A stretch of DNA of 32,000 nucleotides. Origin: Methanothermobacter thermautotrophicus str. Delta H (GTDB taxonomy: Archaea; Methanobacteriota; Methanobacteria; Methanobacteriales; Methanothermobacteraceae). How positions within the stretch are numbered: position 1 is the first letter of the stretch; each line of letters opens with the position of its first letter. Location: NCBI RefSeq assembly GCF_000008645.1, contig NC_000916.1:240001-272000 (forward strand). The letters run 5' to 3'. Both the position numbers and the translations under genes were made by a program. This document shows positions 1 through 17,496 of the stretch, one piece after another. The notes below the pieces were generated by a model that had not been told where the DNA came from, searched no databases, and worked only from the letters and a program-made list of their open reading frames with translations.

Positions 1-1182
1 GAAACCCTGGAGATACCAAGGGTGCCGCCAGGTCCAGGGACGGAGGTGAGGTCAGCCGACCCGGAGACCCTCGGGAGGATATTCGGGCGCGGAAACCTGA
101 CCCTCGGGAGGCTGCTCACAGCCGACGCACCATTCACTGTTGACATCAACCGCATGGTCACAAGGCACCTGGCGGTCCTTGCAGTCACAGGGGCGGGTAA
201 ATCCAACACCGTGGCGGTGATAGTGGACGGGCTCCTCAGGGCAGGGGGTACCGTCATAATCTTCGACATGCACTCAGAGTACGTCAACGCCAGGTTCACA
301 GGTGGAAGGGTTAACAGAATAGGGGCATCCATAAACCCTGCCCACCTCTCACTCAGAGAGATTAAGAGACTCAGCAACGTCAGGGATAACGCCTACGTCC
401 AGGAAAGGTACCTTGCAAGGGCCCACAGGAGGGTAAGGTCCGGGATGAAGGATGGCAGCTCATCACCAGCTGAATTCTTCAGGAGGATGGATGAGAAACT
501 GGATGAGCTTCTCTCAGAGAACAGCAGCGACAGGAGGAGCATAATCGATGTCCAGAACAAGCTGGAGCACATGCGTGAATCCTATGAGGAGATAATAGAC
601 CTTGAGTCTGAGGGGATAATTGAGAGGCTCAGATTAAACCATGTCAATGTGATCGACCTCGGCTCAGTGGATGAGACAGGTTCCGATGTCATTGTGAGTC
701 ATGTGCTCCAGGAGGTCCTCCAGAGCAGGAAGGAGTATCTCAGGCATGGAACTGGCCTTGAGACACCAGTATTCATGGTCCTTGAGGAGGCCCACATCCT
801 CGCACCCTCTGACCGGCCAACCGAGTCAAGGTACTGGATAGGCAGGGTCGCCAGGGAGGGGAGGAAGTTCGGGGTCGGCCTCTGTCTGGTGAGCCAGAGC
901 CCCAAGTCCCTTGACCATGAGGCCCTCTCCCAGGCCAACAATATGATCGTAATGCGCCTCATTGAACCCAATGACCAGCTGCATGTCCAGAGGGCCAGTG
1001 AGGCCCTCAGTGATGACCTCCTCTCACACCTCCCCTCACTGAACATCGGGGAGGCGGTTGTGGTCGGCCTCATGGCACCCTTACCGGCCATTGTGAGGAT
1101 AGAGGAATTTGAGGGTAAGCTCTCGGGCGGTGACCTTGACGTTGCCGGGATATGGAGTGGTATGCGGGTAGGGGATGAGTAG
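1..1182 (+). CDS. HerA-like / DUF87 (FtsK-HerA superfamily) P-loop ATPase, 5'-truncated by the window edge
   Basis: Frame 1 is open from nt 1; the ORF track begins at an internal GTG at nt 22. Walker A 'AVTGAGKSNT', Walker B 'VFMVLEEAH', then 'GLCLVSQSP' and 'IVMRL' fit the HerA/DUF87 pattern. The N-terminal domain normally preceding Walker A is missing, so the gene starts upstream of the window. Confidence 0.75.
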   Translation, partial: ETLEIPRVPPGPGTEVRSADPETLGRIFGRGNLTLGRLLTADAPFTVDINRMVTRHLAVLAVTGAGKSNTVAVIVDGLLRAGGTVIIFDMHSEYVNARFTGGRVNRIGASINPAHLSLREIKRLSNVRDNAYVQERYLARAHRRVRSGMKDGSSSPAEFFRRMDEKLDELLSENSSDRRSIIDVQNKLEHMRESYEEIIDLESEGIIERLRLNHVNVIDLGSVDETGSDVIVSHVLQEVLQSRKEYLRHGTGLETPVFMVLEEAHILAPSDRPTESRYWIGRVAREGRKFGVGLCLVSQSPKSLDHEALSQANNMIVMRLIEPNDQLHVQRASEALSDDLLSHLPSLNIGEAVVVGLMAPLPAIVRIEEFEGKLSGGDLDVAGIWSGMRVGDE

Positions 1183-1249
1183 TTTGCTGCCGCATCTCCA
1201 TGTCTTTGGGGGTAAAGGATAAGTATCTTGATGTGTAAAGTATTCTACA

Positions 1250-1684
1250 GTGGTATTCATGACAGAGTCAGATTTTAGGGATTTCTATGATGTGCTTGTT
1301 GAAAACCTTGAATCATATAATGGGGAGTACGCATCCTTCATAGATTACGGGCCGAAACTCTTCAAGTTACTCACGGATTTTCTGGGCTATGAGCACCTTA
1401 AAGGCCAGCTTAAACTTAAGATTAGCGCTGCAATAGCCTACTACGTTGTTCCCATGGACATCATACCGGAGACAGTATACGGTGCATATGGCTACATCGA
1501 CGACATATTCATAACAGCATACGTTATAAGGATCCTGGCGGACGTTTACGGCTATGATCTACTCTCAGAGTACTGGGATGGGAAGGATGACCTTGAGGAG
1601 GTCGTCGAGCTCTGCTATGAGAGGTCAAAGGATGTCCTGAGGGATAAAACCAGTGATGTTCTGGATTATGTGGGGTTGCTCTGA
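1250..1684 (+). CDS. DUF1232 (YkvA-like) small protein, function unknown
   Basis: 144-aa ORF with GTG at 1250 and first ATG at 1259. The core 'YYVVPMDIIPETVYGAYGYIDDIFITAYVI' matches the D-x-IP...G-Y-x-DD signature I associate with DUF1232. Confidence 0.6.
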   Translation: MVFMTESDFRDFYDVLVENLESYNGEYASFIDYGPKLFKLLTDFLGYEHLKGQLKLKISAAIAYYVVPMDIIPETVYGAYGYIDDIFITAYVIRILADVYGYDLLSEYWDGKDDLEEVVELCYERSKDVLRDKTSDVLDYVGLL

Positions 1685-3892
1685 TCAGCTATTCTCAGGA
1701 ACCCTGTTCTCCCATTTCATATCTTCAAGGACTCCGAGGACGTTTCCAAGGGATTGCTTCTCTACACTGATTTCAATCAGAAGTTCGAAGCACTCATCAT
1801 CCCTGAGGATCATGCACTTCTTCATTGAGGGTATGAGGTCCCTCAGTTCATTCATGGTCTCAATGACAACGTTACCGCTCACAATACAGTTCATCATGAG
1901 GTTGAGGTTTTCGCCGTCAGGGTTTATGTAGAGTATCTCCTTCCTCTGGACACCATTATCTTCAGGTTCTTCCTTTAATGCTTCCTTCTCTGGTTCTATC
2001 AGGAGTTCTGTTTCTATGGTCTCTCTTGTGGGTTGTTCTGCCGGGGTTTCTGTTATAGGTTGTTCTGTTTCGAGGGTCTCTGTTGTGGGTTGTTCTGCCG
2101 GGGTTTCTTTTTCTGGTTCTGTTTCTAGGGTTTCTGTTATAGTTTGTTCTGTTTCTGTGATTTCTTTTTCTGGTTCTGTTCCCGGTTTCAGGGTTTCCCC
2201 TTCTGTTTCAATGTGTCTGAGGTAGAGCTCCTCGATCCCGGGGTTGCGTTTGAGGATGAATCCGTCGGGGGTTTCCTCCAGGAGGTCGTGGTCCTGGAGG
2301 GTCCAGATATTGGCGCGGAGGAGCTGAGGGTCATCAAAGGATTCCAGGAGGTCCTCCTCCCGGAAGGGTCCCTTCCCTGCGACTTTCCCGATCTCTGTGA
2401 ATATCTCCCATGCAACTATTTTAGCATAGCATTCCCGGCATTCCTCCCGCTTCCCATCAGAGTTACTGTGGAACTCTGACCTCTTCAGTGTCCTGCCACA
2501 TAGGGGGCATGTCCTCATCATCTTGGATTCTGATGGAAGCTCCCCCTCACCGTAGGCGTCATGGAAGGCCCTCAATTCCTCGTCGGGTTTCAACCTGTAG
2601 GTTTCAAGGGCAGGGTCGTTCTCAATGAGGTCAAAGTCCTGCAGGATCCAGATGTCAGCCATAACCCCCATCCTTTCATTCTCATCATCTATTATATCAT
2701 CGACGGTGAATTCCACTCCCGGTTCAACCAGCCTCCTTATCCTTACGAGGGCGTCTGCGGCGCAGCACTTCCTTGAGCATTCCCTGCACCTGGGGTCTTC
2801 TCCGTCCTTCAGCTGGAACTCTGTGACCGGTAGGGTCTCCCCACATATTGAGCATTCCAGTTCACCACCCTCAGGAGCCTCCTCCACCCCTGGGGCCACA
2901 GGTTCCTCTGTCTCAGGTCTGCACCTTTTTAGCTCCACGTTCTCTATGATGAACCTCTGGAGCTTATCATCCGGTCCCAGCCGGCACATCCCTGATTCAT
3001 GGTCATAGTCCAGGAGGCCGAACTCATCGAGTATCCAGGTCATGGCGATGAATTTTGTCCTGTCGGGATCATCCATGCCGGATGTGTATTCATTCACGTT
3101 GAACTCATCGCCGGGTTTAAAGATTTGCAGGATCTCCTCAAGGGACTCAAGGGCATAGAGGGTCCTTGAGCATTCCCTGCAGATCCCCTGGCACCTTTCG
3201 GTTTCTGTCTCAAGTTCCGCCATGCACCCACGGCAGAGCTCAGAGTCACTGCCAGGTTTCAGGGGCGCATTCGGATCATCTTCCAGTTTAACAGGCTCAT
3301 CCCTGGTTTTTTCTGATTTATGAGATCCCAGTCCAATGTAAGCGTAATAGTCAGTTTCAGGAGCACCCGATTTTTCATTCAGGTTCTCACCATCTTCTTC
3401 AGTTGAATATGGTCTGGGGCCTGTTTCTTCAGTTGAATTCAATGATTCCCGGGTGCTTCCTTCCTCTTCTGATCCACTCAGAGGCTCTCCGGGTGTCCCG
3501 GATTTCCTGAGGAGTGATTTAACCGCTGAGTTGAACCCCATGTTGAGTTCCATGAATTCTTCACATTTCCCGGTGAGGACATATTTTCTGCCACTGAGTC
3601 CCTTAGATCCATGCCTTTTTATGAACCCCCACCTTAGGAGTTTCCAGAATAGTCCTGTTTCAAGGCCCCTTTCATTGAATTCCTTCAGACTGAAGGGCCC
3701 CATACCCTCCAGTGATTCGATGGCCCTTAAAATCAGGTATCTATCGTAGCATTCACTGCAGACACATATATCATCCACACTGCAGTTCTTGCATGATGAA
3801 TCAGATGATTCATTGCCACATGAAGGACATATGAGTTCACGGGACTCTCTACGGCAGAGGACACAGTTATTCATACGGCATACTCCCCTCAA
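1685..3892 (-). CDS. Four-fold Zn-ribbon repeat protein with acidic T/E/P repeat linker and unassigned C-terminal domain (hypothetical)
   Basis: 735-aa uninterrupted ORF. It has four Cys4 modules ('CVLCRR..CPSCG..CSEC', 'CRGC..CRECS', 'CSICG..CRECS', 'CPLCG..CRECY'). Each is followed about 60 aa later by a conserved W-x-L-x-D/W motif ('LFWKLLRWGF', 'MTWILDEFGLLD', 'DIWILQDFDLIE', 'NIWTLQDHDLLE'). I recognise no family. Confidence 0.7.
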   Translation of the reverse strand: MRGVCRMNNCVLCRRESRELICPSCGNESSDSSCKNCSVDDICVCSECYDRYLILRAIESLEGMGPFSLKEFNERGLETGLFWKLLRWGFIKRHGSKGLSGRKYVLTGKCEEFMELNMGFNSAVKSLLRKSGTPGEPLSGSEEEGSTRESLNSTEETGPRPYSTEEDGENLNEKSGAPETDYYAYIGLGSHKSEKTRDEPVKLEDDPNAPLKPGSDSELCRGCMAELETETERCQGICRECSRTLYALESLEEILQIFKPGDEFNVNEYTSGMDDPDRTKFIAMTWILDEFGLLDYDHESGMCRLGPDDKLQRFIIENVELKRCRPETEEPVAPGVEEAPEGGELECSICGETLPVTEFQLKDGEDPRCRECSRKCCAADALVRIRRLVEPGVEFTVDDIIDDENERMGVMADIWILQDFDLIENDPALETYRLKPDEELRAFHDAYGEGELPSESKMMRTCPLCGRTLKRSEFHSNSDGKREECRECYAKIVAWEIFTEIGKVAGKGPFREEDLLESFDDPQLLRANIWTLQDHDLLEETPDGFILKRNPGIEELYLRHIETEGETLKPGTEPEKEITETEQTITETLETEPEKETPAEQPTTETLETEQPITETPAEQPTRETIETELLIEPEKEALKEEPEDNGVQRKEILYINPDGENLNLMMNCIVSGNVVIETMNELRDLIPSMKKCMILRDDECFELLIEISVEKQSLGNVLGVLEDMKWENRVPENS
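2028..2185 (-). repeat. Intragenic tandem repeat, 57-bp (19-aa) period, about 2.8 copies, encoding the ETPAEQPT-TETLETE acidic linker
   Basis: 'gtgggttgttctgccggggtttct' occurs at 2028-2051 and again at 2085-2108. 'tttctttttctggttctgtt' occurs at 2104-2123 and again at 2161-2180. Both pairs are offset by exactly 57 nt. Confidence 0.8.
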
Positions 3893-4070
3893 TACAGTAC
3901 AATTTAATGTTTTTTCATGTACTTAAAGTATTCACATTCATAGGGTTATAAAAAAATTTATCTATCAATCCTCAGAAATCTTTAAATGTGTTTAATACCG
4001 GGAAGGGGGTTTTCAAATAAAACAGAAGAGACTGGTTCCCACCGGGAAGCCAGGATTCTGGCTTCACAGG

Positions 4071-4784
4071 GTGGATGATGATGTTCTTGAAGATATATCA
4101 GAGAACCTGGTGATCGGGTCGGTGAAGAGGAGGGGGAAGCTAATAAACGAAATACGTGCCGGTGACAGGATATTCATCTTCAGGGCCATACCACTGAATG
4201 GAAGGAGGACGCTCTCATTCGTCGCCTACACCATGGTGGATGAGGTCTACAGTTCCCCTGAGACCCTCTATGATTACTATGAATCCCCAAGGAAGCTGAA
4301 ACTCCGGGGGATAAAGTTCTTCAACCCACCATTACCACTGATAAAGTTCCGGGACAAACTTGTTTCTGTTGAACCTAAAAGATGGTCATCCACACTCAAA
4401 TCAGAGTACAGAAGGATAGATGAGCGTGACTTCAGGATCATACGCTCCCGGGCGAACTTCATAGACAGATTCCCTGCCTACCTTGAGGAGCTATCCTTCA
4501 GCATGGACGAATTCCTCATCAACTCCATCATGGGCCTCCACAGCTTACTCAGGAGGACCGATGGCAGGAAGCAGATGGAGATAAGGTCCTTCATAAAACT
4601 CCTCGACGAGTTCATCAGAACGTACGGTATCAGGAAGTCCTATGAGGAGCTGGAGGAATTCTACTCAGTAAACGCCTGGAGGACCGGAATCAAACATTAC
4701 CCTTCAAGGGATCCCGAGAGGATAGTGACACTCTACAACAGCAGAGGGGCTGGAAGAGACTTTGGACTGATATCCCTGGAATAG
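4071..4784 (+). CDS. Hypothetical protein, first gene of a three-gene operon; possible PUA/EVE/ASCH-like N-terminal barrel (weak)
   Basis: 237-aa ORF with a GTG start; there is no in-frame ATG before codon 55. The N-terminal 'VIGSVKRRGKLINEIRAGDRIFIFRA...LSFVAYTMVDEVY...LKLRGIKFFNPPLPL' resembles small PUA-like folds, and the C-terminal half looks helical. Its TAG stop (4782-4784) overlaps the GGAGG ribosome-binding site of the next gene. Confidence 0.6.
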   Translation: MDDDVLEDISENLVIGSVKRRGKLINEIRAGDRIFIFRAIPLNGRRTLSFVAYTMVDEVYSSPETLYDYYESPRKLKLRGIKFFNPPLPLIKFRDKLVSVEPKRWSSTLKSEYRRIDERDFRIIRSRANFIDRFPAYLEELSFSMDEFLINSIMGLHSLLRRTDGRKQMEIRSFIKLLDEFIRTYGIRKSYEELEEFYSVNAWRTGIKHYPSRDPERIVTLYNSRGAGRDFGLISLE

Positions 4785-4794
4785 GAGGCTTAGT

Positions 4795-6030
4795 ATGGAC
4801 GCAGAAAGGATTATAAACGCCCTTAAAAATGGTAACGTCCCCCCGGATGGTGTGGGTGAGATATGCGTTGGTCGTGAGAGGGAGATTGAGGAGTTCGACA
4901 AGATCCTCGGCAAGGTGAAGGAGGGAGCTGCCATAACAAGGTTCCTCAATGGAGAGTTCGGGTCGGGGAAGTCGTTCTTCCTGAAATTACTCGAAGGGAG
5001 GGCCCTGGCAGATAACTTCGTCGTGGCGAAGGTAACCCTCAGCCGTGACGTTCCCTTCAACAAGTTTGAGGTTGTATACAGGAATATCGTGGCTTCACTC
5101 CGCTGCAAGACCGGCGTATCCCTTGAGCATATAATCGAAAAATGGATCACACAGCTCCGGATGATGTCCCTAAGGGAGACCACGGACCCCTACCAGCAGG
5201 AGAGGATTGTGCTGGACAACATCAGCAGTGACCTGAATGAGGTCCGGAAACATTCAACCACCTTCGCAGCTGCAATCGAGAACTACTACAAACTTTCAGC
5301 CAGGGGTGACAAGGAGACAGCAAGGTACGCCATGGGCTGGCTCAGCGGAGAGAAGAACATCCCCTTCACCATAAAGAGGCAGTTCGGGGTCAAGGGGGAC
5401 ATTGACAGGGAGAACGCCTTCAAGTACCTGGAGGCCCTCTCATCGTTCCTCAGGGCACTGAAGTATTCGGGGCTGATTATACTCATCGACGAGGCAGAGC
5501 ACATAATGACCCTCCACACCAAGAAGCTCAGGGACACGGCCTACGATTACATGAGGTTCATATACGATGAGTGCAGCATTGGAAGATTCCAGAACACCCT
5601 CTTCATATTTGCAGGCACACCCGAGTTCTTCGAGGACCCGAAGCTTGGAGTGCCATCCTACACAGCCCTCAATGAGAGGATAGAGGACGCCATCAAAACA
5701 GAATTCAAGGACCTCAGAAAACCCATCATCAGACTTGACGGTTTCAGGAGGGAGAACCTCCATGAGCTCTCCGAGAGACTCATAGCCATGCACGAGGAGG
5801 TCTATGGATGGGAGGCCAACCCTGTGAGGGAATCCCTCGATGGCATAATCTCAAGGCATGAGGCCAACGCTGAACTGACAGGTTACATCTCCCCCAGGAA
5901 CTTTGTCAAGTCATTCATAAGTGTCCTGGATGTTGTACAGCAGAACCCTGAACTCCGTGGCGAGGCCGAAATCCTGGATCTCTTCGAGGAGAAGGAGATG
6001 GAATTTGAGGAGGATGAGGACTGGGTCTAG
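4795..6030 (+). CDS. P-loop ATPase, DUF2791 / BrxD-like (BREX BrxC/BrxD-type ATP-binding protein family)
   Basis: 411 aa, with GGAGG at 4784-4788, 6 nt upstream of the ATG. The N-terminus 'INALKNGNVPPDGVGEICVGREREIEEF' is followed by Walker A 'GEFGSGKSFF' and Walker B 'LIILIDEAEH'. The family call (PF10923) comes from remembered signatures, not a search. Confidence 0.65.
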   Translation: MDAERIINALKNGNVPPDGVGEICVGREREIEEFDKILGKVKEGAAITRFLNGEFGSGKSFFLKLLEGRALADNFVVAKVTLSRDVPFNKFEVVYRNIVASLRCKTGVSLEHIIEKWITQLRMMSLRETTDPYQQERIVLDNISSDLNEVRKHSTTFAAAIENYYKLSARGDKETARYAMGWLSGEKNIPFTIKRQFGVKGDIDRENAFKYLEALSSFLRALKYSGLIILIDEAEHIMTLHTKKLRDTAYDYMRFIYDECSIGRFQNTLFIFAGTPEFFEDPKLGVPSYTALNERIEDAIKTEFKDLRKPIIRLDGFRRENLHELSERLIAMHEEVYGWEANPVRESLDGIISRHEANAELTGYISPRNFVKSFISVLDVVQQNPELRGEAEILDLFEEKEMEFEEDEDWV

Positions 6031-6080: not shown

Positions 6081-8189
6081 ATGTCTGCAGAATCCCTGAA
6101 CCCCCGCCTCAGGCACTTCCTCGCAAACAGGCTCGGGTGGAGGAGCCTGCGGGATGTGCAGAAATCCGCCCTTGAAGCCATAGGGAGGGGCGAGGACACC
6201 CTCATAGTGGCACCCACTGCATCGGGTAAGACAGAGGCGGCTTTAATCCCGGTATTCAACTCCATACTCAGCGAGGGCCTTCCACCGGTCAGCATGCTCT
6301 ATGTATCACCCCTCAAGGCCCTCATAAATGACATGCACAGCCGCCTTGAACTGTGGGGCAACCACTTCAACCTGGAGGTCATGAAGTGGCACGGTGACGT
6401 ACCGGCAAACAGGAAGAGGAGGTTCATTAAGAACCCATCAGACATCCTCCTCATAACACCCGAGTCCCTTGAGGTCATGATGATCAACAGGAGCCGGGCC
6501 GAGAAGGAGAGGATCCTTGGAAACCTCCGCTACATCATCGTGGATGAGATACACCAGTTCATAGAGGCTGACAGGGGTGTTCAGCTGAACTCCCTCCTGG
6601 CAAGGCTTGAGAGGTACACAGGGGTGAGGCCCCAGCGGATAGGCCTCTCTGCAACCGTAGGAAACCCTGAAGAGGTTCTGAACTGGATGAGCCCATCCGG
6701 AGCTGTTGTGAGGGATACTGCCGAGAGGAAGCTCCAGTACAGGATATTCGAGTTAAATCACCATAAACTGATTGAGGTGCTGAGGAGGTTCACAGGGAAG
6801 AAGGTCCTCATATTTGTACCCTCACGCAGGGACGCCGAGAAGTACTACAACATCATAAGGAAGTGCCTGGATGTTGATGTCTTCATCCACCACTCATCCA
6901 TTAACCGGGACTCAAGGGAGGAGGCCGAGGAGAGGTTCAGGTCAGTATCAGCGGCCTTCATGGTGAACACCAGCACCCTCGAACTGGGTATAGACGTGGG
7001 TGACATCGACGTGGTGATCCACATAAGGAGCCCCACCAGCGTGAACAGGTTCCTCCAGAGGACCGGGAGGAGCGGCAGAAGGAGGGGCCTTCAGAGGACC
7101 ATAATATTCCAGGAGAAGGAGGCTCTAACAGCCCTCTCAGTGGCGTCCCTGGCCCTATCAGGGAGGCTTGAGGATCTGAGGATCCCGGTGAGGCCCCTTG
7201 ACATATACTTCCACCAGATCCTCAGCTCGGTATTTGAACTTGAGAAGCCCACTCCAGGGGATATCTACAGGGGACTTGGCAGGGCACATGTATTCTCGGA
7301 TCTGGATGCCGACGACTTCAGGCACCTGGTTGAATTCATGGTGGAGAACGACTTCCTCAGGGTCCATGGCCCCTACATCCACCATGGATTCAACTTCGAG
7401 AAGACCTTCGGTAAGATGAACTTCCTGGAGTTCTACACGGTCTTCCCACCCAACTATGAGTTCACAGTTAAACACCGCACAAAGGTCATAGGCTCCCTTG
7501 ACTCCTTCTTTGTCGTCACCTACCTCAAGGTGGGCAGGGGATTCATACTGGGTGGTGAGAAGTGGGTGGTGAAGGATATAGACCATGAAAGGTTCATCGT
7601 GAGGGTCAAACCCTGCACCAGGGATGCTGAAATACCTGACTGGAGCAGTGGAGGCGCCCCCACCACCTTTGAGGTTGCAAGGCACGTCTACGATATACTC
7701 CTCGGGGACTTCGACAGGGGCCTCCTGAGGTGGCTCGACCCGGGATCACAGGCCCGGGTCCAGTCGTGCATGGAGATGGCCTCAGCTGAGGGTCTGGACC
7801 ATGGCATGATCCCGGTGCGTATCGGGGAGAGGATAGAAATCAACACCTTCGCCGGGGAGAGGGTTAACGCCCTCATCTCCGATGTGTTCCGCCTTGAGCA
7901 CGGGGTCCACGGTATCAGTAACAGTGCCTTCACCTCATCCTTCAGTGCCAGACTTGATTACCATGACATTGAATCCACCCTCCGGGATATACCAGCCATC
8001 ATCTCAGAGGAGGACTTCCTCCTCAGATTGGAGGATAACCTTGACAGGTTTGTTAAGAACAAGTTCATAGAGCACCTCCCCGGGGACGTGGCCGCACATA
8101 TGAGGTACAGCCTCCTCTACAGGCCCGATGAACTGCTCAGGCTCCTCCGGGATAATGGACCCGTGGAGGTCCATGACTTCAAACTCTAG
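6081..8189 (+). CDS. Lhr-like SF2 DEIH-box helicase (COG1201-type; BrxHI-like)
   Basis: 702 aa. Motif I 'APTASGKTEAA', Ia 'SPLKALIND', Ib 'TPESL', II 'VDEIHQF', III 'LSATVGN', VI 'QRTGRSGRR', plus a C-terminal extension of about 330 aa. GGGAG at 6069-6073 lies upstream of ATG 6081. Confidence 0.8.
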   Translation: MSAESLNPRLRHFLANRLGWRSLRDVQKSALEAIGRGEDTLIVAPTASGKTEAALIPVFNSILSEGLPPVSMLYVSPLKALINDMHSRLELWGNHFNLEVMKWHGDVPANRKRRFIKNPSDILLITPESLEVMMINRSRAEKERILGNLRYIIVDEIHQFIEADRGVQLNSLLARLERYTGVRPQRIGLSATVGNPEEVLNWMSPSGAVVRDTAERKLQYRIFELNHHKLIEVLRRFTGKKVLIFVPSRRDAEKYYNIIRKCLDVDVFIHHSSINRDSREEAEERFRSVSAAFMVNTSTLELGIDVGDIDVVIHIRSPTSVNRFLQRTGRSGRRRGLQRTIIFQEKEALTALSVASLALSGRLEDLRIPVRPLDIYFHQILSSVFELEKPTPGDIYRGLGRAHVFSDLDADDFRHLVEFMVENDFLRVHGPYIHHGFNFEKTFGKMNFLEFYTVFPPNYEFTVKHRTKVIGSLDSFFVVTYLKVGRGFILGGEKWVVKDIDHERFIVRVKPCTRDAEIPDWSSGGAPTTFEVARHVYDILLGDFDRGLLRWLDPGSQARVQSCMEMASAEGLDHGMIPVRIGERIEINTFAGERVNALISDVFRLEHGVHGISNSAFTSSFSARLDYHDIESTLRDIPAIISEEDFLLRLEDNLDRFVKNKFIEHLPGDVAAHMRYSLLYRPDELLRLLRDNGPVEVHDFKL

Positions 8190-8268: not shown

Positions 8269-8709
8269 ATGGACAGGGACATACCACTCAAGGGACTCCT
8301 CTCAATAATCCTCAGGAGTCACAGGGTCTTCATCGGGAGGGAGCTGGGACACCTGAACCTCACAGACGCCCAGGTGGCATGCCTCCTGAGGATCCACAGG
8401 GAACCAGGGATAAAACAGGATGAACTCGCCACCTTCTTCCACGTGGACAAGGGAACCATAGCAAGGACCCTGAGGCGCCTGGAGGAGAGCGGATTCATTG
8501 AGAGAGAGCAGGACCCGGAGAACAGGCGCAGGTACATCCTGGAGGTAACCAGGAGGGGCGAGGAAATCATCCCCCTCATACTGAAGGTTGAGGAGCGCTG
8601 GGAGGACCTCCTCTTCAGAGACTTCACAGAGGATGAGAGGAAACTCTTCAGGAAGATGTGCCGGAGACTGGCAGAGGAGGCAGTCAGGATGAGGGGTGAG
8701 TGGAGGTGA
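8269..8709 (+). CDS. MarR-family winged-helix transcriptional regulator
   Basis: 146 aa. 'LTDAQVACLLRIHREPGIKQDELATFFHVDKGTIARTLRRLEESGFIEREQDPENRRRYILEVTRRGEE' is a textbook MarR wHTH. Confidence 0.9.
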   Translation: MDRDIPLKGLLSIILRSHRVFIGRELGHLNLTDAQVACLLRIHREPGIKQDELATFFHVDKGTIARTLRRLEESGFIEREQDPENRRRYILEVTRRGEEIIPLILKVEERWEDLLFRDFTEDERKLFRKMCRRLAEEAVRMRGEWR

Positions 8710-10058
8710 GCGAGGGAATCGAAATCATAAGGGGAGACCCCAGGAGGGCCCTCATCAAACTATCAGGGCCACTCATAGTTGCAATGCTCCTCACATCCAT
8801 CTACAACCTCGTGGACGCGGTATGGGTGGCAGGCCTTGGAGGCGAGGCCCTCGCAGCCATAGGATTCGTTACACCCATCTACATGATCCTCGTGGGCCTC
8901 TCCAACGGCCTAGGCGCCGGGGCAGCATCATCGGTCTCAAGGTGCCTGGGTGCCGGTGATGAGGAGGGAATGAACAACAGCGCATCCCACACAATCATCA
9001 TCACACTGGCGGTCTCAATAATCCTGACGGTGATAATCGAGATCCTCCTGAGGGACATCCTCCTCTCCCTGGGCGCCGCCGGGGCCCTGAAACCGGCAAT
9101 GGAGTACGGTAGTGTGGTCTTTGCGGGTACCCTCTTCACCCTCTTCCCCGGGGCTGCCTACGGTATACTGAGGTCTGAGGGTGATGCCAGGAGGCCCATG
9201 TATGCCATGGGTTTATCAGCTGTCCTCAACATGGTCCTGGACCCCATCCTCATCTACACGGCGGGCTGGGGGATAGCAGGGGCGGCCTGGGCCACGGTGA
9301 TATCACAGCTCCTGGTGTCGCTCCTCATAATCTACTGGTTCCTCGCAGGGAGGACCTTCACCTCCATAGGCTGGAGCCACTTCAGGGCCGACCGGGGGGT
9401 CGTCTGGTCCATCCTCTCGGTCACCATACCCGCAAGTGCCGAGTTCCTGGTCATGTCCATGGTAACAGCCCTCCTCAACTGGATACTCACATCTGTGGCC
9501 GGGACCTCGGCGGTGGCTGTATACTCCGCAGGGTGGAGGATAGTGATGCTCGCCATAGTCCCGGTGATATCGGTGGCAACAGCCCTTGTGAGCGTATCTG
9601 GCGTGGCATACGGGTCAAGGAACTTCGAAAACCTGGAGGTGGCCCACGGTTACTCAATAAGGCTGGGCCTCCTGATAGCGGGGGCCACGGCGGCCCTCAC
9701 ATTCGTCCTGGCGCCATGGATAGCCTGGATATTCTCCTACTCCCAGGCATCATCCCATCTGGCCCCGAGGATAACCGGGTTCCTGAGGGTCATATGCCTC
9801 TTCTACATCTTCCTGCCCCCGGGTATAATGTCAGGGTCCATATTCCAGGGCGCGGGGCGCGGGATGACGTCCCTCATGCTCTCGGTGATAAGGCAGGTCC
9901 TCCTGGTCGCGGTCTTCGCATACCTCCTCGCCGTGACCCTGGGCCTCGGTGAGGTTGGTGTCTGGTGGGGTGTCGTTGCAGGTGACATCGGGGGTAGCCT
10001 GGTGGCCTACCTGTGGGCCAGACTCTTCATCGGGAGGCTCCGGAGGTACGCTGCCTGA
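8700..10058 (+). CDS. MATE-family multidrug/toxin efflux transporter
   Basis: 452 aa and polytopic. The N-terminus 'LSGPLIVAMLLTSIYNLVDAVWVAGLGGEALAAIG' is typical of MATE/NorM-like proteins. The GTG start overlaps the marR stop by 10 nt. Confidence 0.85.
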   Translation: MEVSEGIEIIRGDPRRALIKLSGPLIVAMLLTSIYNLVDAVWVAGLGGEALAAIGFVTPIYMILVGLSNGLGAGAASSVSRCLGAGDEEGMNNSASHTIIITLAVSIILTVIIEILLRDILLSLGAAGALKPAMEYGSVVFAGTLFTLFPGAAYGILRSEGDARRPMYAMGLSAVLNMVLDPILIYTAGWGIAGAAWATVISQLLVSLLIIYWFLAGRTFTSIGWSHFRADRGVVWSILSVTIPASAEFLVMSMVTALLNWILTSVAGTSAVAVYSAGWRIVMLAIVPVISVATALVSVSGVAYGSRNFENLEVAHGYSIRLGLLIAGATAALTFVLAPWIAWIFSYSQASSHLAPRITGFLRVICLFYIFLPPGIMSGSIFQGAGRGMTSLMLSVIRQVLLVAVFAYLLAVTLGLGEVGVWWGVVAGDIGGSLVAYLWARLFIGRLRRYAA

Positions 10059-10206
10059 TCATCTTAAAGTTCATATGAAGATCTCAGCCACTCTCCTAAG
10101 CGGATTATAAATTAGTCTCAGAAGCCTTTTTTCTTCAACGGCAGCGTGTGAGGTTTTTATCAGCTTATGGTGAATACTTATCAATGAGTTTATAAAAAAT
10201 ATATTT

Positions 10207-10971
10207 ATGAATGATCCCCCATTGATTGAGAATTATGTTACATACTCTGAAATACGTTCTCGGGTGAATGATAATAGAATGCTGGATCTAAGACAGTATT
10301 CCTGGTTCTATCCGACTACTCTTCTTCCCCTTTTCCATTTGAAGAAAACAAAATCTTTGAGGTGTGAGTTACATCCGGGTGTGAAGCATTATTTTGAGGT
10401 TATGGAACAGGGAAATCCTGGCAAAGGAAAAACATACATTCCCTTCGTTGAACTATTACATGACAGATCCGAAAGGGATCCTCTCAAATACGTATATGAT
10501 TTGTTAGATAAAAGTTATGGTGGGAAGGATGCTTTATGCTTTTTGCTCTCCGAGTTGACCGATAATATTTATCAGCATTCAAAATTCACCTCAGCTTATA
10601 TTCTGGCGCAAAAATATCCTAAGAAAGGTTTCATTGAGATATGTTTTCTTGATGATGGTGTAAGCATACCTCAGAATTTTGAGAATCATGATTATTACTT
10701 TGAATATGACTCTGAAGCAATAATACAAGCTATAAATGGAAAATCCACTAAAGTTACTTACCCTGGAGATCCTGAAAGAGGTTATGGTCTTAATAACATA
10801 CTTAAAATATTTGTTGAGGGTGGGAAAGGCGAACTATTAGTGGTGTCTAGAAAGGGGGCTTTTTATAAATCTCAGGATGCTAAGATGTATGAGTTAGGTA
10901 ATGAGTTTCAAGGGACATTAGTCAGCCTGCGCATACATGAAGGGAAGCTTAACATATATAAATACATTTAA
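10207..10971 (+). CDS. GHKL-superfamily ATPase / putative RsbW-SpoIIAB-like kinase with an unassigned N-terminal region
   Basis: 254 aa. N box 'ELTDNIYQHS', G1 'LDDGVSIP', G2 'ERGYGLNNI'. The gene is AT-rich relative to its flanks. Confidence 0.65.
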   Translation: MNDPPLIENYVTYSEIRSRVNDNRMLDLRQYSWFYPTTLLPLFHLKKTKSLRCELHPGVKHYFEVMEQGNPGKGKTYIPFVELLHDRSERDPLKYVYDLLDKSYGGKDALCFLLSELTDNIYQHSKFTSAYILAQKYPKKGFIEICFLDDGVSIPQNFENHDYYFEYDSEAIIQAINGKSTKVTYPGDPERGYGLNNILKIFVEGGKGELLVVSRKGAFYKSQDAKMYELGNEFQGTLVSLRIHEGKLNIYKYI

Positions 10972-11088
10972 CAAAATATAAACATAGGCACTGTTAGCTG
11001 AATACCATTTGTGGCTCTCTAGAAAAGTATATATGTATGTTAATGTGGTGGTAATCATCTTACCGTGGGAAAAGGACGGGATGTGGAT

Positions 11089-11409
11089 ATGAAAAATAAA
11101 ATTGAAAAGATACGGCTGGAAAAGCACATCGGTGCACTGCTGGCTTTCAGGGATTATGTGGATGATCTTTTTGAGGAGATAAACAGACTGGATGCGAATG
11201 TAATAGAATTAGATTTCGAAGGCGTGGAATTTATGAGTCGATCCTTCGCTCACGAGTACTTGATGCGAAAATCAAAGTCAGAAAAGGATATTTATGAAAA
11301 AAATAAGTGTCCTTCAATTCAGAAGATGTTAAGTGTTGTTGAAAGGTCCTTTAAGAATCCTCGAAAAATTAGGGTGACGCCTACACCGCATCCTATTAAA
11401 ATAGCTTAA
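11089..11409 (+). CDS. STAS-like DUF4325 domain protein
   Basis: The ORF is open from GTG 11065; the first ATG is at 11089 ('MKNKIEKIRLEKH'). 'VIELDFEGVEFMSRSFAHEYL' matches the DUF4325 core signature as I remember it. Confidence 0.6.
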   Translation: MKNKIEKIRLEKHIGALLAFRDYVDDLFEEINRLDANVIELDFEGVEFMSRSFAHEYLMRKSKSEKDIYEKNKCPSIQKMLSVVERSFKNPRKIRVTPTPHPIKIA

Positions 11410-11620
11410 ATTTAGTAAAGAAATCATTTTCCTTGTGTGGGCTAACGATACTCTTGAAACTGTGTTTTCACGGACCCCTTTAAGGTTGTCTTCTGCAATA
11501 CATTTAATTGTCCATTATATTATTCAGCGTATGCTGTCTGAAACAGATTAGATGCAATTCGGTCAAAAAGCAAAATTTGACGTTAAAATGCTCTTATAAT
11601 CAAAAAAAGAATAAATGGGA

Positions 11621-14600
11621 TTATTTTATCTTTCTACGTCCACTGAGGAGGTAACCTGCACCCATGAGACCCACTATTGCAATGATGCCAATGAGGGCGT
11701 AAACTGGCATCTGTGTTGTCTCTGAAGTACCCTCTGTTGATGCTGCTACCTCATAAGCCTTTACATCACCATTTTCAGTGGGTGATGAGGATGCTGAGGT
11801 AGATTGTGAAACTCCTGCCGAACCTGAGGTTCCTGAAGATGTCGCTGCACTCATGGCATCGGATTCACCTCGTGATGAACCATCTGACACTGAATGTTCT
11901 CCATTGCCCTCGTTTGAGGGTTTATCTGTATCAGTAGCTGGAAGATTCTCTCCCCATGCGGCAGCCATTGTATGTTTGAACTTCTCAATCGCGGCACTGT
12001 TCAATGTTGAGAGGCTGACTATCCACTGATTCAGCACTATGTTGGCGCATGTATGATGGCAGCAGACAACACCATACTGATTCACCATGTTGATATACTC
12101 ATTGGCAAGGGAAGCCTTAACCTGGTCTGATGGGCTCCAGTAGCCCTTACGCACTGTTTCGATGAGCCTTGCAATAATTGAAGCCCTTGCATAGGGATTT
12201 GATTTGCTGAAGAATTCATTCAGACCCATGTCATAACTGTCCCTCACGTAGATGCTGTTCACCATATCCCATGTCGATTCAGATACCAGTTCTGGATTTG
12301 TAACCTGCCACATCCAGAGGTTCTCCACAAAGGAATCAATATACCTTGCACCGTCATAGCCGCCTTTCATCATACCCTCAATCCATCTGGGGTTGAGGTA
12401 TCTTGTCAGGAGGTCCCTTGTGAGGAACTGGCTCATCGTTTCTATCTTTGCATCACTGCGGAGGTTATTTATGTACATCTCTGGTTTTGAACCTGAAACT
12501 CTCTCCACTGCAAGGCTGAGGCCTCCGAAGTAGGCTGCTACCATTGGGTGTTCAAGGGCACCGTAGAGGTTTGAGCTCCTGCTGAACATGGCCACAGTCA
12601 CATCCATAAGGTTCTCCCTGAAGATGGAGGGAACCTTCAATCCAGTGATATTTTCACCGTAGGCCGATGAGACCCTCTCAAGGTAGAAACTGGCTAGCTG
12701 ATCACTGTTATTCCAGGTTTCACTTGCAGGTATTGCCTCCTGGAGGCCCGGTGAATAGGCGCCCGGTTCCTCAGAGAATATCCTGAGAAGGGATAATCTC
12801 CTTGCATCGGTCTCACTGAAACCTTCTCCCAGTAGTTTCAGGTAGATGGTTTCTGAGTTGTTCCTGATATGGTTGGGGGTGTCGCTGGCTCCAGCAGCGA
12901 GTTTAACTGCCCTGTCAATGAGGGTTATTATATCCATGTGAAGGTCCCTGTAGAGTCCTGAGGTAACCACTGTAATGTCGATGCGAGGCCTTGTAAGGTT
13001 TGTTATGAGTTCAACGTCCTTGACCCTGCCCTTTGAGTCCCATACAGGTTTAACACCCATGAGGTAGAGTATCTCTGCCTCCATTACTCCCTGGTGCCTC
13101 ATGGTCTCTGAGGCCCACAGGACGAATGCAACCTTTGTGGGATAGGTTCCATGTTTACTCAGGTAATCCTCAAGGAAGCTGTCAACGAGTTTCACTGCAG
13201 TTTCCCATGCAGTTCTGGTTGGAATTGTCCTTGAATCCAGTGGATATGGGTTTCTTCCTGTTGGGAGAGCATCAGGGTTCCTTATAGGGTCACCTCTGGG
13301 ACCGGGTGTTATGTATCCACCTTCAAGGGCTGTGAGTATGGCTGTTATCTCGCTGGTGCAGTTACGGATTCTCTGTGTATACTCAATGGCAAGCTGGAGG
13401 TAGCCTGTTATGGTAGCATTTAAGCTACCAGTGGTTCTGATCTGAGCCTCTTCGGGTGTGAGGTTGTTCAGCACGACCTCCCTCAGCAGACTCTCTGTAG
13501 CTGTCCCATTGATTGGGGGCAGCATCGCAATTAATAGCTGTATGAGTTCTTCGCCTTCGGGTGCTCTTCCAAGGACATGTGGTCCATAGGGTATGTAGCT
13601 TTTTCTGATATCATCAAGGTATGCTGTGACATCTGCGAGGAATTCATCGAAACTGTCGCCTGTGTAGTTGAATCCCACTGTCCGGCTCTGGTTTATGATT
13701 TTATCACGGTAAGCATTCTTCAGGGTGTCATCAACGGTTTCCATGTATAGTCTGATGTTATCATAGAGTTCGGAGAGGTTTCCGTAGAGTCCGGAGGGTA
13801 TAAGTACGGGTGTCATGAAGTTTATGATCAGCATGTTTGCCCTTCGCTTGTCAAAGATTGCGGGGGCGTCCATGGGGAGCACGTGGATTATGGGCATGTC
13901 CTGGAGTAAAACAGCGCCCCAGTCCTTGCTTGATAGGCCCTCCTGTTTTCCCGGCATCAGGGGCACGAGACTGAACACTGATAGTATGGCGTCTGCACGG
14001 TAGACCTTCCTCATCCACCAGTAGAATGCGAGCAGGTTGTGGGTCGGTGGAAGTTTCCCTGTATTGTAGAGTGTGGTGTTATCCTGCAGCCAGCCCCACA
14101 CCGGTTCAGGGGCGAGTAGGATGTTTCCGAATTCCAGTTTTGGTATGACAATGTACTTTCCGGTGCTGTTCGTATAGACCATCAGGTTTCCCAGGGGCGG
14201 GGCCCCATGCATCTGTGACCTCCCTCTGCATATCCAGAGGCAGTTCGCTGAACCAGTTGAGGTATTCATCCTCCGGTATCAGTATGACACTTCCAGATTT
14301 CACCCTGTTTTCAAGTTCACCGGGCGCCCATGTGCCCACATTGCTTCCAACTTCTGCCATGAGGTGTGCGAGTTCTGCCTCTCCGGGCAGTGTTCTGTTG
14401 CCGACGTTGTATCCCCTCTCCTGCATTGCTTTCAGTATCGCTGCTATGCTTGCCTGGGCATTGAGATAGTAGTCGATGTCTGCACCAACATTCGCCTTCC
14501 CCCCACCCTCACTGTAGTAGGTTATCACAATCTTCTTGTCATGGTTGCTGAGTTTTTTGAGGTTCATCCAAGAGATGGTCCTCTTCACTAGCCACTCTAT

Positions 14601-15707
14601 CTGGTAATCTATGGGCCTGTTGTATATGACACCCGTAAGAGGGTCGGTTTCCTTGACGCTTATGACTATGGGCTCTATTATCCCATCCATCTCTGCAAGG
14701 GATAACTGGTAGACTTCAGAGCAAGGCACGCCCTGGGTGCTGTTCTCCCAGGATGTGAGGTTCATGCTGGTTGAGAATATTCTGATACCGTTGAGAACCG
14801 TGACGTTGAGTTTCTGAAGATCCTCAACACCTCCTGTCCAGTTCTGTGAATTCAGAGTGGCACCCCTTGAGATTAACACCGCGGCATCGATGATTGCCTT
14901 TCCATTTAACATGATATATTTCATTGAATTGGCGTCCCTGTAGGTGTAGGTTGAGACTATGACGTTGACATTCTTTGACTCGAAGCTCCTTACAAGTGCA
15001 TCCAGTAGTGGACCGTCCCTTGCCATGTCCGTGTACTCTGTGCTCAGTATCCCGACGGTTGGGAAGCCTTCATGGTATCTGCCTGTCCCCCTGTACCAGT
15101 CCAGGTATTCTGTGAGATTACCGAATATCTTCGGTGCATCTGGATGGTATATGCCCCAGAGTGGGCGCTGTTCAGGTGCTGATGGGGTCACATTGAGGTT
15201 GCAGAATGACGCCGCCAGGTAGAGGATGAGGTTCTTCAGGTTCCTCTCGCTGGTATAGTTGAGGTATCTGAGGCTTTCATTGAACCGGGGGTCTGATGTG
15301 CTCACTGTCTGGAGGTTCAGGATCGGCGCGTAACTGTCTCTTGCCAAGGGTTCAACGCATATCATTATGGTTGAGCCACTGTCCCGGGCAGCTCTCAGTT
15401 TATCGCTGAGGGCCTCCCATACAGGTGAGGAAAGACCACTCCTTGTGCCGAAGATTATCACGTCGCCGCTTATATTGTAAGTGAGGTTGGTTTCTGTTCT
15501 ACCGCTCTCTGCCCGTACCTTTATGATGTTTCTAATGTCGCTGTCATTGGCCACCCGGTTTAGCAGTGCAATTTCATTGGGACTTGAGCTCACTATGAGT
15601 ATCTCTGGCATGCTCTGGTTCTGTGCTGTGCCGTTCTCTGCGAATGATGTCCCGCTTGCTGCAAATAGACAGATCACAAGTGCAGTGTATAGTATATGCT
15701 TCTTCAC
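11621..15707 (-). pseudogene. CobN/ChlH-type chelatase large-subunit homologue, secreted and C-terminally anchored, split by a single-base frameshift
   Basis: Two overlapping minus-strand ORFs. ORF 14106..15707 (533 aa) has a GTG start preceded by GGTGAG and the signal-like 'MKKHILYTALVICLFAASGTSFA'. ORF 11621..14269 (882 aa) ends in an S/T-rich linker, the anchor 'VYALIGIIAIVGLMGAGYLL' and 'SGRRKIK'. '..TDAWGPAPG' in the upstream frame continues as 'NLMVYTNSTGKYIVIPKLEFGNILLAPEP' in the +1 frame. This corresponds to the WG-x-PPG ... GN-hydrophobic-x-QP stretch of CobN/ChlH. The span is 4087 nt (3n+1), so one extra base splits the gene. It most likely lies in the GGGAAA / GGGGCCCCGCCCC runs at 14187-14210. 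Confidence 0.75.
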
Positions 15708-15773: not shown

Positions 15774-16055
15774 TCTTGTTAACAATTTTTTATTTTATAT
15801 TATTACAGGCTGTGGCCTTGCAGGTAGGCGCATCTTCCTTGTGGAATGATCCCCGTGCTGAAACATGTGGGGTGTATCTTCCTTTTTTTGGGGGTGCTGT
15901 ATCCTCTTGATTATTCATGAGCCCCTTCATATCTTCTGGATGAGAATACATGTTCTTATGGGTCGTTGTTATCCCCTGGACTAGCCCACTTCAGCTGTTT
16001 TTTTTTCTAATTCCGTGGACACAGCGCAGGAGGGATGCCTCTTTTTATTTTTTGA

Positions 16056-16277
16056 GTCCATATTCCAGGGCGCGGGGCGCGGGATGACGTCCCTCATGCT
16101 CTCGGTGATAAGGCAGGTCCTCCTGGTGGCTGTCTTCGCTTACCTCCTTGCCGTGACCCTGGGCCTCGGCGAGGCGGTGTCTGGTGGGGTGTCGTTGCAG
16201 GTGACATCGGGGGTAGCCTGGTGGCCTACTGTGGGCCAGACTCTTCATCGGGAGGCTCAGGAGGTACGCTGTCTGAT
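16056..16277 (+). pseudogene. Decayed duplicate of the last ~74 codons of the MATE gene (paralogous to 9836-10059)
   Basis: Hand alignment shows the first 73 nt identical. About 9 substitutions and two 1-nt deletions follow ('gaggttggtg' vs 'gaggcggtg'; 'cctacctgtggg' vs 'cctactgtggg'), which break the frame. The TGA is conserved at 16274-16276. There is no upstream MATE coding sequence. Confidence 0.9.
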
Positions 16278-16463
16278 ACCTCCTCATGGGCAGCTGGTGG
16301 GTTATCTTTCTGTTCCGGCTGCGGCACTGATCATCCCTACATTCTTTATTGTTTCTTCGTGGTCTCTCTGGGCGCACTGAATAACTGCTCTGAGTAGATT
16401 AATCTGAATCATTTCAGTGAGGAGACTGGAGAGGTCCAGAGTTTTAGAGATCTCAGTCATATG

Positions 16464-16620
16464 ATAGAATTGGAGAATTTATGAGTCGATCCTTCGCTCA
16501 GGAGTACCCGACGCGAAAATCAGGGATATCCATGAAAGATAAGAATCCAGAAGATCAGATGTTGTTGAAAGATCCGTTAAGAATCCTAGAGTGATGCCCA
16601 CGTTGCATAATCCCATTAAA
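16464..16620 (+). pseudogene. Decayed duplicate of the 3' two-thirds of the DUF4325 gene (paralogous to 11203-11400)
   Basis: A 26-nt identical core 'gaatttatgagtcgatccttcgctca' occurs at 16475-16500 and at 11227-11252. The flanking sequence is alignable with several indels, through to '..cattaaa'. There is no start codon and no intact frame. Confidence 0.8.
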
Positions 16621-17028
16621 TGGCCTGTTGGTTCACTCTATTTTATGTGAGGCTTCTGCCTGTGAATTCTTCGAGCCTGTCTTAAAGCACAGTAAGCCAT
16701 GAGATACTGAATGTATTTTAAGATGAGGACTGGTAAGCTCTCCCGGGCACTTGAAGACTATGCCTGTAAACTTTATCAAATCATTCTCAATATAGATTTC
16801 GGGCGCTGGCGGTTACTAGACTGGCAATAATCTCTTTATCATACATATCCAAATTTAATTCAAAAAATAAAAAATTAAACAGACTCTTTCCTGATTTTTG
16901 GCGGAAGTGAACTCCTATCAGCTTAATAAGGGATACTCTGTAGAGATTCAACAACACAGAGCATATAAATATTATAAGTTATATAATTCGTTGTAGCAGA
17001 AAAGACCGCAGGAGCAGGTGATTTTTTT

Positions 17029-17310
17029 GTGGCTATGTACAAATTAGAACTCCCCATATCAATTGAAAGAGAAGGAAACTGGTTCATTGCAATCTGCGAG
17101 CCATTTAATGTGGTCAGTCGAGGTAAAAGTGAGGAAAGTGCAGTAGAAAATCTTAAAGAGGCCCTTGAGTTATTTTTAAATGATGAGGATGTTCTGAGAC
17201 AATATTCTACCAAGATCAAGAAATTCGTGGTGCCAAAAAAGGAGCAGTATGTGAGTGTTGAAATACATGACTGGGAGGATACCGCCCCTATCAGGAGTGG
17301 AAGTCTGTAA
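17029..17310 (+). CDS. hicB: HicB-family antitoxin (UPF0150-like)
   Basis: 'MYKLELPISIEREGNWFIAICEPFNVVSRGKSEESAVENLKEALELFL' is the HicB N-terminal fold signature. ATG at 17035, GTG at 17029. The 3' end overlaps the hicA start. Confidence 0.75.
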   Translation: MAMYKLELPISIEREGNWFIAICEPFNVVSRGKSEESAVENLKEALELFLNDEDVLRQYSTKIKKFVVPKKEQYVSVEIHDWEDTAPIRSGSL

Positions 17311-17496
17311 AGCTCTCCAGAAGGATGGTTTCAAGAATGCAGGTGGAAAAGGAAGTCACAGGAAACTTAAAAAAGTAGATAAAGAGGTCCGGTTGTTATT
17401 GTCCCACTTCATGACGAAATTGCACCAAAGACTCTGAATTCTATTCTTAAACGGGCAAAGATAACACGTGAAAGATTTCTGGAGCTTCTAAAATAA
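17267..17496 (+). pseudogene. hicA: HicA-family mRNA-interferase toxin, disrupted by a 1-nt deletion
   Basis: The N-terminal frame gives 'MTGRIPPLSGVEVCKALQKDGFKNAGGKGSHRKLKKVDKEVR' and then runs into nonsense ('LLLSHFMTKLHQRL*'). Shifting frame at about 17390-17392 gives the canonical HicA C-terminus 'VVIVPLHDEIAPKTLNSILKRAKITRERFLELLK*', with stop at 17494-17496. The span is 230 nt (3n-1). Confidence 0.8.

Follow-up and report, generated by a model that had tools for sequence, protein, structure and literature searches.

A GHKL–STAS gene pair in Methanothermobacter thermautotrophicus: a mobile, putative two-gene switch of the CapK/VapK kind

What might a GHKL-type kinase and a small STAS-like protein, encoded side by side, be switching in an archaeon? 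The question is raised by two adjacent open reading frames (ORFs) in a stretch of 32,000 nucleotides of the chromosome of Methanothermobacter thermautotrophicus str. Delta H (NC_000916.1, positions 240,001 to 272,000 of the forward strand), which is called the window in this text. A sequence-only reading of the window had proposed that the two genes form a horizontally acquired, self-contained, ATP-driven partner switch of the RsbW/RsbV kind, and had found its output puzzling. To our knowledge, archaea have no sigma factors. Both ORFs of this cassette were found at the coordinates in Table 1, and all the motifs quoted for them are present in their translations. They are most likely MTH315 (the kinase-like protein) and MTH316 (its partner), because the GenBank record of the provirus psiM100 likens its ORFB/ORFC to these two genes and each cassette gene is single-copy in the genome, apart from a decayed fragment too short to score. 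On balance, we lean towards seeing the cassette as a switch of the CapK/VapK type that consists of two genes only, stands alone and moves horizontally, and whose output would fall on a target outside the cassette.

The first gene encodes a member of the GHKL (Bergerat) superfamily, an assignment that is firm at the family level. The window protein itself lies under the Pfam cut-off for HATPase_c (E=0.02); among 31 homologues, 12 match HATPase_c (best E=2.9e-7) and 3 match HATPase_c_2. The core residues of the N box, the G1 box and the ATP-lid/G2 segment are invariant (Table 1), and S180, K182 and L195 of the last segment are at least 90% conserved. With the family alignment as input, AlphaFold2 gives a model whose predicted local distance difference test (pLDDT) score is 90.4. 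Its Foldseek matches in the PDB are Topo VI-B, Topo II, Hsp90, WalK and SpoIIAB, with a probability of 1.0 for Topo VI-B, Topo II, WalK and SpoIIAB; a sequence search of the PDB with the kinase profile gave noise only. Invariant motifs, family matches and fold thus bear out the GHKL assignment of the sequence-only reading.

A rival reading concerns the activity of this protein. The lowest Foldseek E-values belong to the ATPase domains of Topo II, Topo VI-B and Hsp90, and E116 corresponds to the catalytic Glu of the GHKL ATPases. The protein could be a non-kinase ATPase of the MORC/Topo VI-B/Hsp90 kind that acts on DNA or on proteins, with the STAS partner as a regulator of its nucleotide state; the Arg that occupies the acceptor column of the partner, discussed below, could then act on the nucleotide. 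We think that this is improbable. The target-normalised TM-scores are best for SpoIIAB (0.58) and WalK (0.51), and there is homology to a VapK-like kinase. Moreover, the GHKL domain forms the C-terminal end of the protein, and the model contains no transducer, DNA-binding or dimerisation domain. Because a transducer or dimerisation domain is missing, the build is that of the serine kinases SpoIIAB, RsbW and CapK and not that of the GyrB/MutL ATPases. The N box also follows the E-x3-N-x3-H pattern of SpoIIAB-type kinases.

The region ahead of the GHKL domain had been described in the sequence-only reading as about 100 residues with no recognisable motif, and this description has to be revised. 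Residues 1–100 are predicted confidently by AlphaFold2 as a folded beta-alpha-beta-alpha-beta-alpha domain, which occupies the position of the STAS domain in CapK and VapK. P36, T37, L39, L40, P41 and P79 are conserved positions within it, and Y62 is invariant in all 31 homologues.

The second gene encodes a minimal STAS/DUF4325 protein. The window protein scores 22.5 bits against DUF4325 (PF14213), for which the cut-off is 23, and 42 of the 45 orthologous partners encoded downstream of kinase homologues match the family. The AlphaFold2 model (pLDDT 91.3) has a minimal STAS fold, in agreement with the earlier assignment, and after the helix formed by residues 75–89 it continues only into a short, disordered, basic tail of low confidence. 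RsbS, the STAS domain of prestin and SpoIIAA head its structural matches (TM about 0.5). Both cassette proteins fall into PHROG families that have no assigned function, the kinase-like protein to phrog_3364 (E=2e-40) and the partner to phrog_20761. Among the PADLOC models, the kinase-like protein has a partial match to the candidate PDC-M65A (E=2.6e-5, model positions 250–349 of 398), and the partner has no match.

The two genes travel together. A word-indexed search with the kinase-like protein yielded 99 homologues, most of which, with few exceptions, are archaeal, and an exhaustive profile search yielded 450 clusters (50% identity) at E<=1e-30, mostly archaeal and nearly all of about 260 residues; from this uniform length it follows that effector domains are not fused to the kinase. 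Gene neighbourhoods were compared for 51 genome loci and 3 viral contigs from IMG/VR, with 52 of them usable for counting the partner. In about 48 of these 52 loci, a homologous ORF of 93–121 residues lies directly downstream on the same strand, often overlapping the kinase gene. Pairs were found in Methanobacteriota, Thermoplasmatota, Nitrososphaerota, DPANN, Asgard, Bathyarchaeia, Bacteroidota and phages. When 640 neighbouring ORFs were clustered all against all, the two genes alone proved to be common, with no third gene conserved. A gene of 304–318 residues that recurs in Methanomassiliicoccales was considered as a third gene and rejected, as it encodes a ferredoxin-type protein and reflects lineage synteny. 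ORFD of psiM100 was discarded as well, since a sister provirus has ORFB and ORFC and no ORFD. The sequence-only reading was therefore well founded in its paired architecture, in calling the cassette self-contained (the two genes alone are conserved over about 50 loci) and in seeing no effector domain within it.

What surrounds the pair elsewhere is less telling. The flanking genes differ in almost every lineage and are mostly of the housekeeping kind (Pus10, TruD, EF-1alpha, FtsZ, TFB, prephenate dehydratase, NurA, peptidase C69 and others). Enrichment of the pair in defence islands, an idea raised by the sequence-only reading, is not seen as a general property: when 93 flanking proteins, mostly housekeeping, were tallied with Pfam and PADLOC, there were single restriction-modification matches only. 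None of the 93 is a PIN protein.

The most instructive comparison is offered by two systems described by Chambers et al. (EMBO J 2026, PMC13373217). CapK has the architecture HTH–STAS–GHKL, where HTH is a helix-turn-helix domain, and is switched on by single-stranded DNA (ssDNA). Its substrate is the repressor CapS, a STAS protein with a winged HTH, and phosphorylation of a conserved Ser in the second helix of the STAS domain de-represses the adjacent immune operon; CBASS, Bub, Thoeris and other operons are controlled by CapK–CapS, which responds to DNA damage (PMC13373217). VapK is a STAS–GHKL protein, VapS consists of a STAS domain and a C-terminal helix, and VapC is a PIN toxin. Activation of VapK by ssDNA and phosphorylation of VapS were proposed and could not be tested by the authors; VapS in a phosphomimetic form neither binds VapC nor counteracts it, so that VapC is released, and VapKSC protects E. 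coli from a phage (PMC13373217). In both kinases the STAS domain and the kinase domain form an ssDNA-binding groove with a stacking aromatic residue, W68 in CapK and F54 in VapK (PMC13373217). Dataset EV3 of the same paper contains vapKSC operons of Methanosarcina and Methanococcoides (PMC13373217), and an earlier classification of PIN proteins already had a VapC subgroup coupled to DUF4325 genes (PMC5499597). The puzzle of an output in cells free of sigma factors is thus eased, as both CapK–CapS and VapK–VapS–VapC set a published precedent for non-sigma outputs (PMC13373217).

An operon of the vapKSC type in Methanosarcinaceae (locus L083, 1132–2881) consists of overlapping genes for a GHKL protein of 270 residues, a DUF4325 protein of 123 and a PIN protein of 190, and its VapK-like protein was used for the kinase comparison in place of Escherichia VapK or CapK. 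This protein is 32% identical to the GHKL half of the two-gene family (hhalign probability 98%), the N-domains do not align, and it also matches phrog_3364. The STAS protein of the operon matches VapS over the full length (E=4e-5), and the profile of the cassette partner matches one PDB entry, Escherichia VapS 9Z7O (E=1e-3). Judged from these profile comparisons, the pair is homologous to modules of the VapK/VapS type, and in the tree the two-gene family stands as a separate clade from the vapKSC type (support 99/96). The genome that holds locus L083 (G023) also holds a two-gene copy (L069), so that both module types coexist in one cell.

The likenesses extend to the layout of the genes. As in VapKSC, a kinase of some 260–270 residues with an N-terminal alpha/beta domain and a GHKL domain is followed by a DUF4325/STAS protein of some 110–120 residues, and the distribution is patchy and mobile. 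However, the cassette has no PIN/VapC gene, neither in the window nor in the approximately 50 loci, and its partner is shorter than VapS, with no evident counterpart of the extended C-terminal region. With CapKS it shares a GHKL kinase that has a domain at the STAS position and a STAS gene directly downstream. In contrast to CapKS, an HTH is absent from the N-terminus of the kinase and a winged HTH from the partner (254 and 106 residues; AlphaFold2 models), and no conserved immune operon follows the pair, the downstream genes being variable. The combination of a Bergerat-fold protein with a single-domain STAS protein is also that of SpoIIAB–SpoIIAA and RsbW–RsbV, and SpoIIAB and SpoIIAA are among the fold matches. 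Unlike SpoIIAB and RsbW, the cassette kinase has an additional N-terminal domain of 100 residues, and unlike in their modules no sigma-factor or PP2C gene is adjacent, although no genome-wide search for PP2C was made.

A further difference from these systems lies in the acceptor site of the partner. A near-invariant block, D-F-x-G-V-x-x-[IM]-[ST]-R-S-F-A-H-E-Y, marks the start of helix alpha-2, with Ser or Thr at position 50 in 44 of 44 sequences, R51 in 43 of 44, S52 in 44 of 44 and F53 in 43 of 44; S-R-S-F is present in 117 of 118 further homologues. In a gapless register anchored on the D-F pair and F53, S48 of VapS falls on R51. SpoIIAA, in which we take the corresponding stretch to be D-S-S-G, would presumably place S58 on the same column. 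Outside the clade, the counterparts are A-S-P-F in VapS, T-T-L-F in the archaeal VapS-like protein and S-S-S-F in the partner of a Streptococcus phage.

This Arg opens another way to read the cassette, in which the kinase itself is the effector. The STAS protein would restrain the ATP site through its Arg as a pseudosubstrate or antitoxin, and release would lead to phosphorylation of cellular or viral targets or to ATP hydrolysis, with an outcome like that of toxin–antitoxin or abortive-infection systems. In broader terms, the near-invariant Arg would make the STAS protein a non-phosphorylatable pseudosubstrate or a regulator of the nucleotide state, and the kinase or ATPase the true effector of a minimal two-gene sensor–effector module spreading among archaeal phyla, Bacteroidota and viruses, a wiring of partner switches that has not been described. 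For either wording we see roughly one chance among several, clearly short of an even one. The conservation of two genes alone suits the idea, in that a self-contained module needs its effector inside. The near-fixation of R51 (43/44 and 117/118), where relatives outside the clade have Ser or Thr, suits it too, and so do tight linkage, frequent overlap and carriage by prophages, as in toxin–antitoxin and abortive-infection pairs. In classic SpoIIAA–SpoIIAB partner switching, the unphosphorylated STAS protein sequesters the kinase. Nevertheless, the residues beside the Arg, S/T50 and S52, are fully conserved, and an exchange of Ser and Thr at position 50 is the pattern expected of a real phospho-acceptor. 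The reading has to presume a toxic kinase, and both characterised relatives act through the STAS protein and not through the kinase (PMC13373217).

Our preferred reading remains a CapK/VapK-type switch with an output in trans, and its mechanism can be proposed as follows. A stress or infection cue would activate the kinase; by analogy with CapK and VapK, ssDNA or another nucleic acid could be this cue, and its sensing may take place between the N-domain, at Y62, and the GHKL domain, at the K139/K140 region, the counterpart of K237/K239 in CapK. The N-terminal end of helix alpha-2, the site of S-R-S-F, would be where the partner docks on the kinase, and the kinase would alter the state of the partner, most likely by phosphorylating S50 or S52. 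This would in turn switch the partner's interaction with a target encoded outside the cassette. We infer the kinase activity, the phospho-site, the cue, the target in trans and a role in virus–host conflict, and a defence role of the cassette is plausible.

Several points weigh against this reading. The column that holds the canonical Ser or Thr (S48 in VapS, S54 in CapS) is Arg in the partner family, which suggests a shift of the acceptor by one residue or else a STAS protein that, in this clade, is not phosphorylated. The similarity between partner and VapS is weak, as the E-value above indicates, and hhalign gives 32% probability to the archaeal VapS-like protein. The N-domain would be STAS-like only in its predicted topology and its position; in profile–profile comparison, it has no detectable similarity to the N-domain of the VapK-like protein or to the STAS domain of the partner. 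For a cassette that crosses phyla, a target in trans is hard to reconcile with this mobility, unless the target is universal. Furthermore, defence genes are few in the flanks, so that outside the window there is no guilt by association for defence, and the family is known from sequences and predicted models alone.

That the cassette is horizontally mobile is indicated by several lines of sequence comparison, and here the sequence-only reading has been strengthened. The cassette has a GC content of 36.2%, against 49.5% for the genome (standard deviation 3.9) and 60% for the MATE gene upstream, in keeping with the earlier remark that it is richer in A and T than its flanks; only 0.6% of 1.4-kb windows of the genome are equally AT-rich. 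The distribution is patchy: the pair occurs in 2 of the 9 species of the genus, and strong matches were found in 7 of 151 sampled Methanosarcinaceae. In another species of the genus (G004), the same slot between the MATE and CobN-like genes holds three unrelated small genes, namely DUF3467, an ArsR-like HTH gene and a 93-residue ORF. The maximum-likelihood tree mixes phyla on short branches, grouping Nanoarchaeota with Methanosarcinales and Iainarchaeota, and Bathyarchaeia with Thorarchaeota. A copy in a metagenome-assembled genome of Candidatus Deferrimicrobium sp. (L025) groups with copies from Methanoperedenaceae (L014) and Methanotrichaceae, and is either an archaeon-to-bacterium transfer or a binning error.

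Carriage by proviruses completes this picture. The closest relatives of the pair are ORFB and ORFC (60% and 53% identity to the window proteins; sister to the window protein in the tree) in the "inserted fragment IFa" of the Methanothermobacter wolfeii provirus psiM100; what is said here about IFa rests on GenBank record NC_002628. IFa has 33% GC inside flanks of 41–44% and lies between the early genes and the terminase. The two pairs belong to the same family, have the same gene order and are both AT-rich relative to their flanks; unlike that of psiM100, the window pair is chromosomal and no ORFD follows it. ORFD (L001 7141–8619; 492 residues) has no Pfam match, falls in phrog_10674 (E=1e-224) and matches in part a PHROG annotated as acetyltransferase. 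Three tandem 125-bp repeats lie directly upstream of ORFB (L060 3502–3876; psiM100 6594–6968), and the annotated left end of IFa is inside them; these repeats may be the recombination site by which the cassette entered the provirus.

Such carriage might mean that the module serves the virus: as provirus cargo, it would sense DNA damage or superinfection and feed the lysis–lysogeny decision in archaea that lack LexA, or exclude rival viruses, and the chromosomal copies would be remnants or domesticated. Besides IFa, a Methanosalsum provirus carries the pair next to genes for an HK97-like capsid, terminase and prim-pol, and prophages of Streptococcus agalactiae carry it after the lysin gene. In Bacteroides phage BF1-TP2 the pair is gp43/gp42. 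In Francisella phage KIRK, the genes for a 293-residue protein and a DUF4325 protein are flanked by those for the CI repressor and the integrase (PMC7924643). The PHROG families of both proteins point the same way. We regard this explanation as unlikely, though somewhat less so than a non-kinase ATPase. Most of the approximately 50 loci have no viral genes within two genes on either side and lie between housekeeping genes, only 3 IMG/VR contigs were matched, and according to the psiM100 record the sister virus psiM2 does not have the insert, which makes the pair dispensable for the virus.

Turning to the locus itself, the features of the window that concern the cassette are collected in Table 1.

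Table 1. Positions in the window of the cassette, its conserved motifs and its duplicated remnants.
Feature	Positions	Strand	Remarks
MATE transporter gene	8700-10058		Upstream neighbour of the cassette
AT-rich island	10060-11620		Occupies the entire slot from the MATE stop codon to the CobN-like stop codon
Candidate promoter region	10103-10203	+	TATA-like boxes at about 10103-10112 and at 10189-10203; sequence reading
Kinase-like gene	10207-10971	+	254 residues; residues 1-100 alpha/beta domain (10207-10506), residues 105-254 GHKL (10519-10968)
N box, E116-x3-N120-x3-H124 (ELTDNIYQH)	10552-10578	+	E116, N120 and H124 invariant (31/31)
G1 box, D149-D-G151-x-x-I154	10651-10668	+	D149, G151 and I154 invariant
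ATP-lid and G2, G178-x-S-T-K182 ... R191-G-Y-G194-L	10738-10791	+	G178, R191, G192 and G194 invariant
STAS/DUF4325 partner gene	11089-11409	+	106 residues; other possible start GTG 11065
S50-R51-S52-F53 motif	11236-11247	+	N-terminus of STAS helix alpha-2; R51 in the canonical phospho-acceptor column
MATE 3'-end duplicate	16056-16277	+	Copy of 9836-10059, 95.5% identical; within 481-bp piece 15891-16371
STAS gene remnant	16475-16620	+	Frameshift and stop; 3' 60% of the gene; within 385-bp piece 16446-16830

The TATA-like boxes upstream of the kinase gene make a candidate promoter. From the GTG start the partner would have 114 residues, and this start is the one used in the close relative AP018336.1. 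Strains differ by 8 nucleotides in the kinase gene and 2 in the partner gene, which is too few to assess selection.

The neighbours of the cassette are MarR, MATE and CobN-like genes: a marR–MATE efflux operon lies on one side, and the CobN-like gene is convergent, directly after the partner gene. This adjacency, found both in the window genome and in AP018336.1, might suggest that the cassette regulates one of its neighbours, either the efflux operon or the CobN-like gene. The comparative data contradict it: essentially all other lineages have different neighbours, MATE is kept without the pair in other species of the genus, species G004 also keeps the CobN-like gene beside MATE, and the composition of the cassette is foreign. 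The CobN-like gene (11621–15707, minus strand) is broken into ORFs of 882 and 533 residues and is an intact gene of 1361 residues in AP018336.1, which is 97.7% identical; the split is probably due to a frameshift in the strain or to a sequencing error.

Within the window, the surroundings of the cassette are defence-rich and variable; a HicAB pair and the effector operon of a type III CRISPR-Cas system lie downstream. The HicA-like ORF (17255–17437, plus strand) has 60 residues in the window and 76 in AP018336.1. AP018336.1 is colinear with the window only from 8009, just upstream of marR. To the left of this point the window has a gene for an Lhr-like helicase (6081–8189), and AP018336.1 has (1–5802 of the compared stretch) a HepT-like/MNT (HEPN-MNT) pair, a peptidase M28 gene and others, so the region left of marR looks like a strain-variable hotspot adjoining the cassette. 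The variable-region context supposed by the sequence-only reading is thus met in part: the window is defence-rich and the flanks change in almost every lineage, yet elsewhere these flanks are housekeeping genes.

The sequence-only reading had also noticed a decayed second copy about 5 kb downstream and had taken it as a sign of turnover typical of conflict or defence cassettes. The copy is real: 16475–16590 matches 11227–11364 with about 92% identity, and a three-frame translation gives the C-terminal 60% of the partner. However, the 3' end of MATE has been copied along with it, so this is not a duplication of the cassette on its own. The pieces 15891–16371 and 16446–16830 are absent from AP018336.1, which is otherwise colinear here, and the parts that flank the duplicated fragments have no further matches in the genome that would make them a repeated element. 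On the alignments, the decayed copy is best described as the product of a local, colinear duplication that took in the MATE 3' end and the cassette and was later eroded. It gives no evidence for autonomous transposition of the cassette or for a defence role, and the interpretation as a conflict signature is withdrawn in favour of a local segmental duplication.

Pairs of a GHKL kinase and a STAS protein were long viewed as sigma-factor switches, until in 2026 they were described as controllers that are activated by ssDNA and act on bacterial immune operons and on the VapC toxin (PMC13373217). The two-gene clade is a stripped-down form of these systems, which has neither a DNA-binding domain nor a toxin and in which the acceptor site is altered. 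What appears to be new, as far as sequence comparison can tell, is an effector-less variant of the CapK/VapK–STAS theme that is widespread in archaea and their viruses. Small proteins, confident models and the scope for clear point mutants make the system tractable. A genetic system exists for M. thermautotrophicus deltaH. We think that identifying the output would reveal which process is governed by such a switch in cells that have neither sigma factors nor LexA, possibly as part of an archaeal response to DNA damage or infection; alternatively, it would reveal the kinase itself as the effector.

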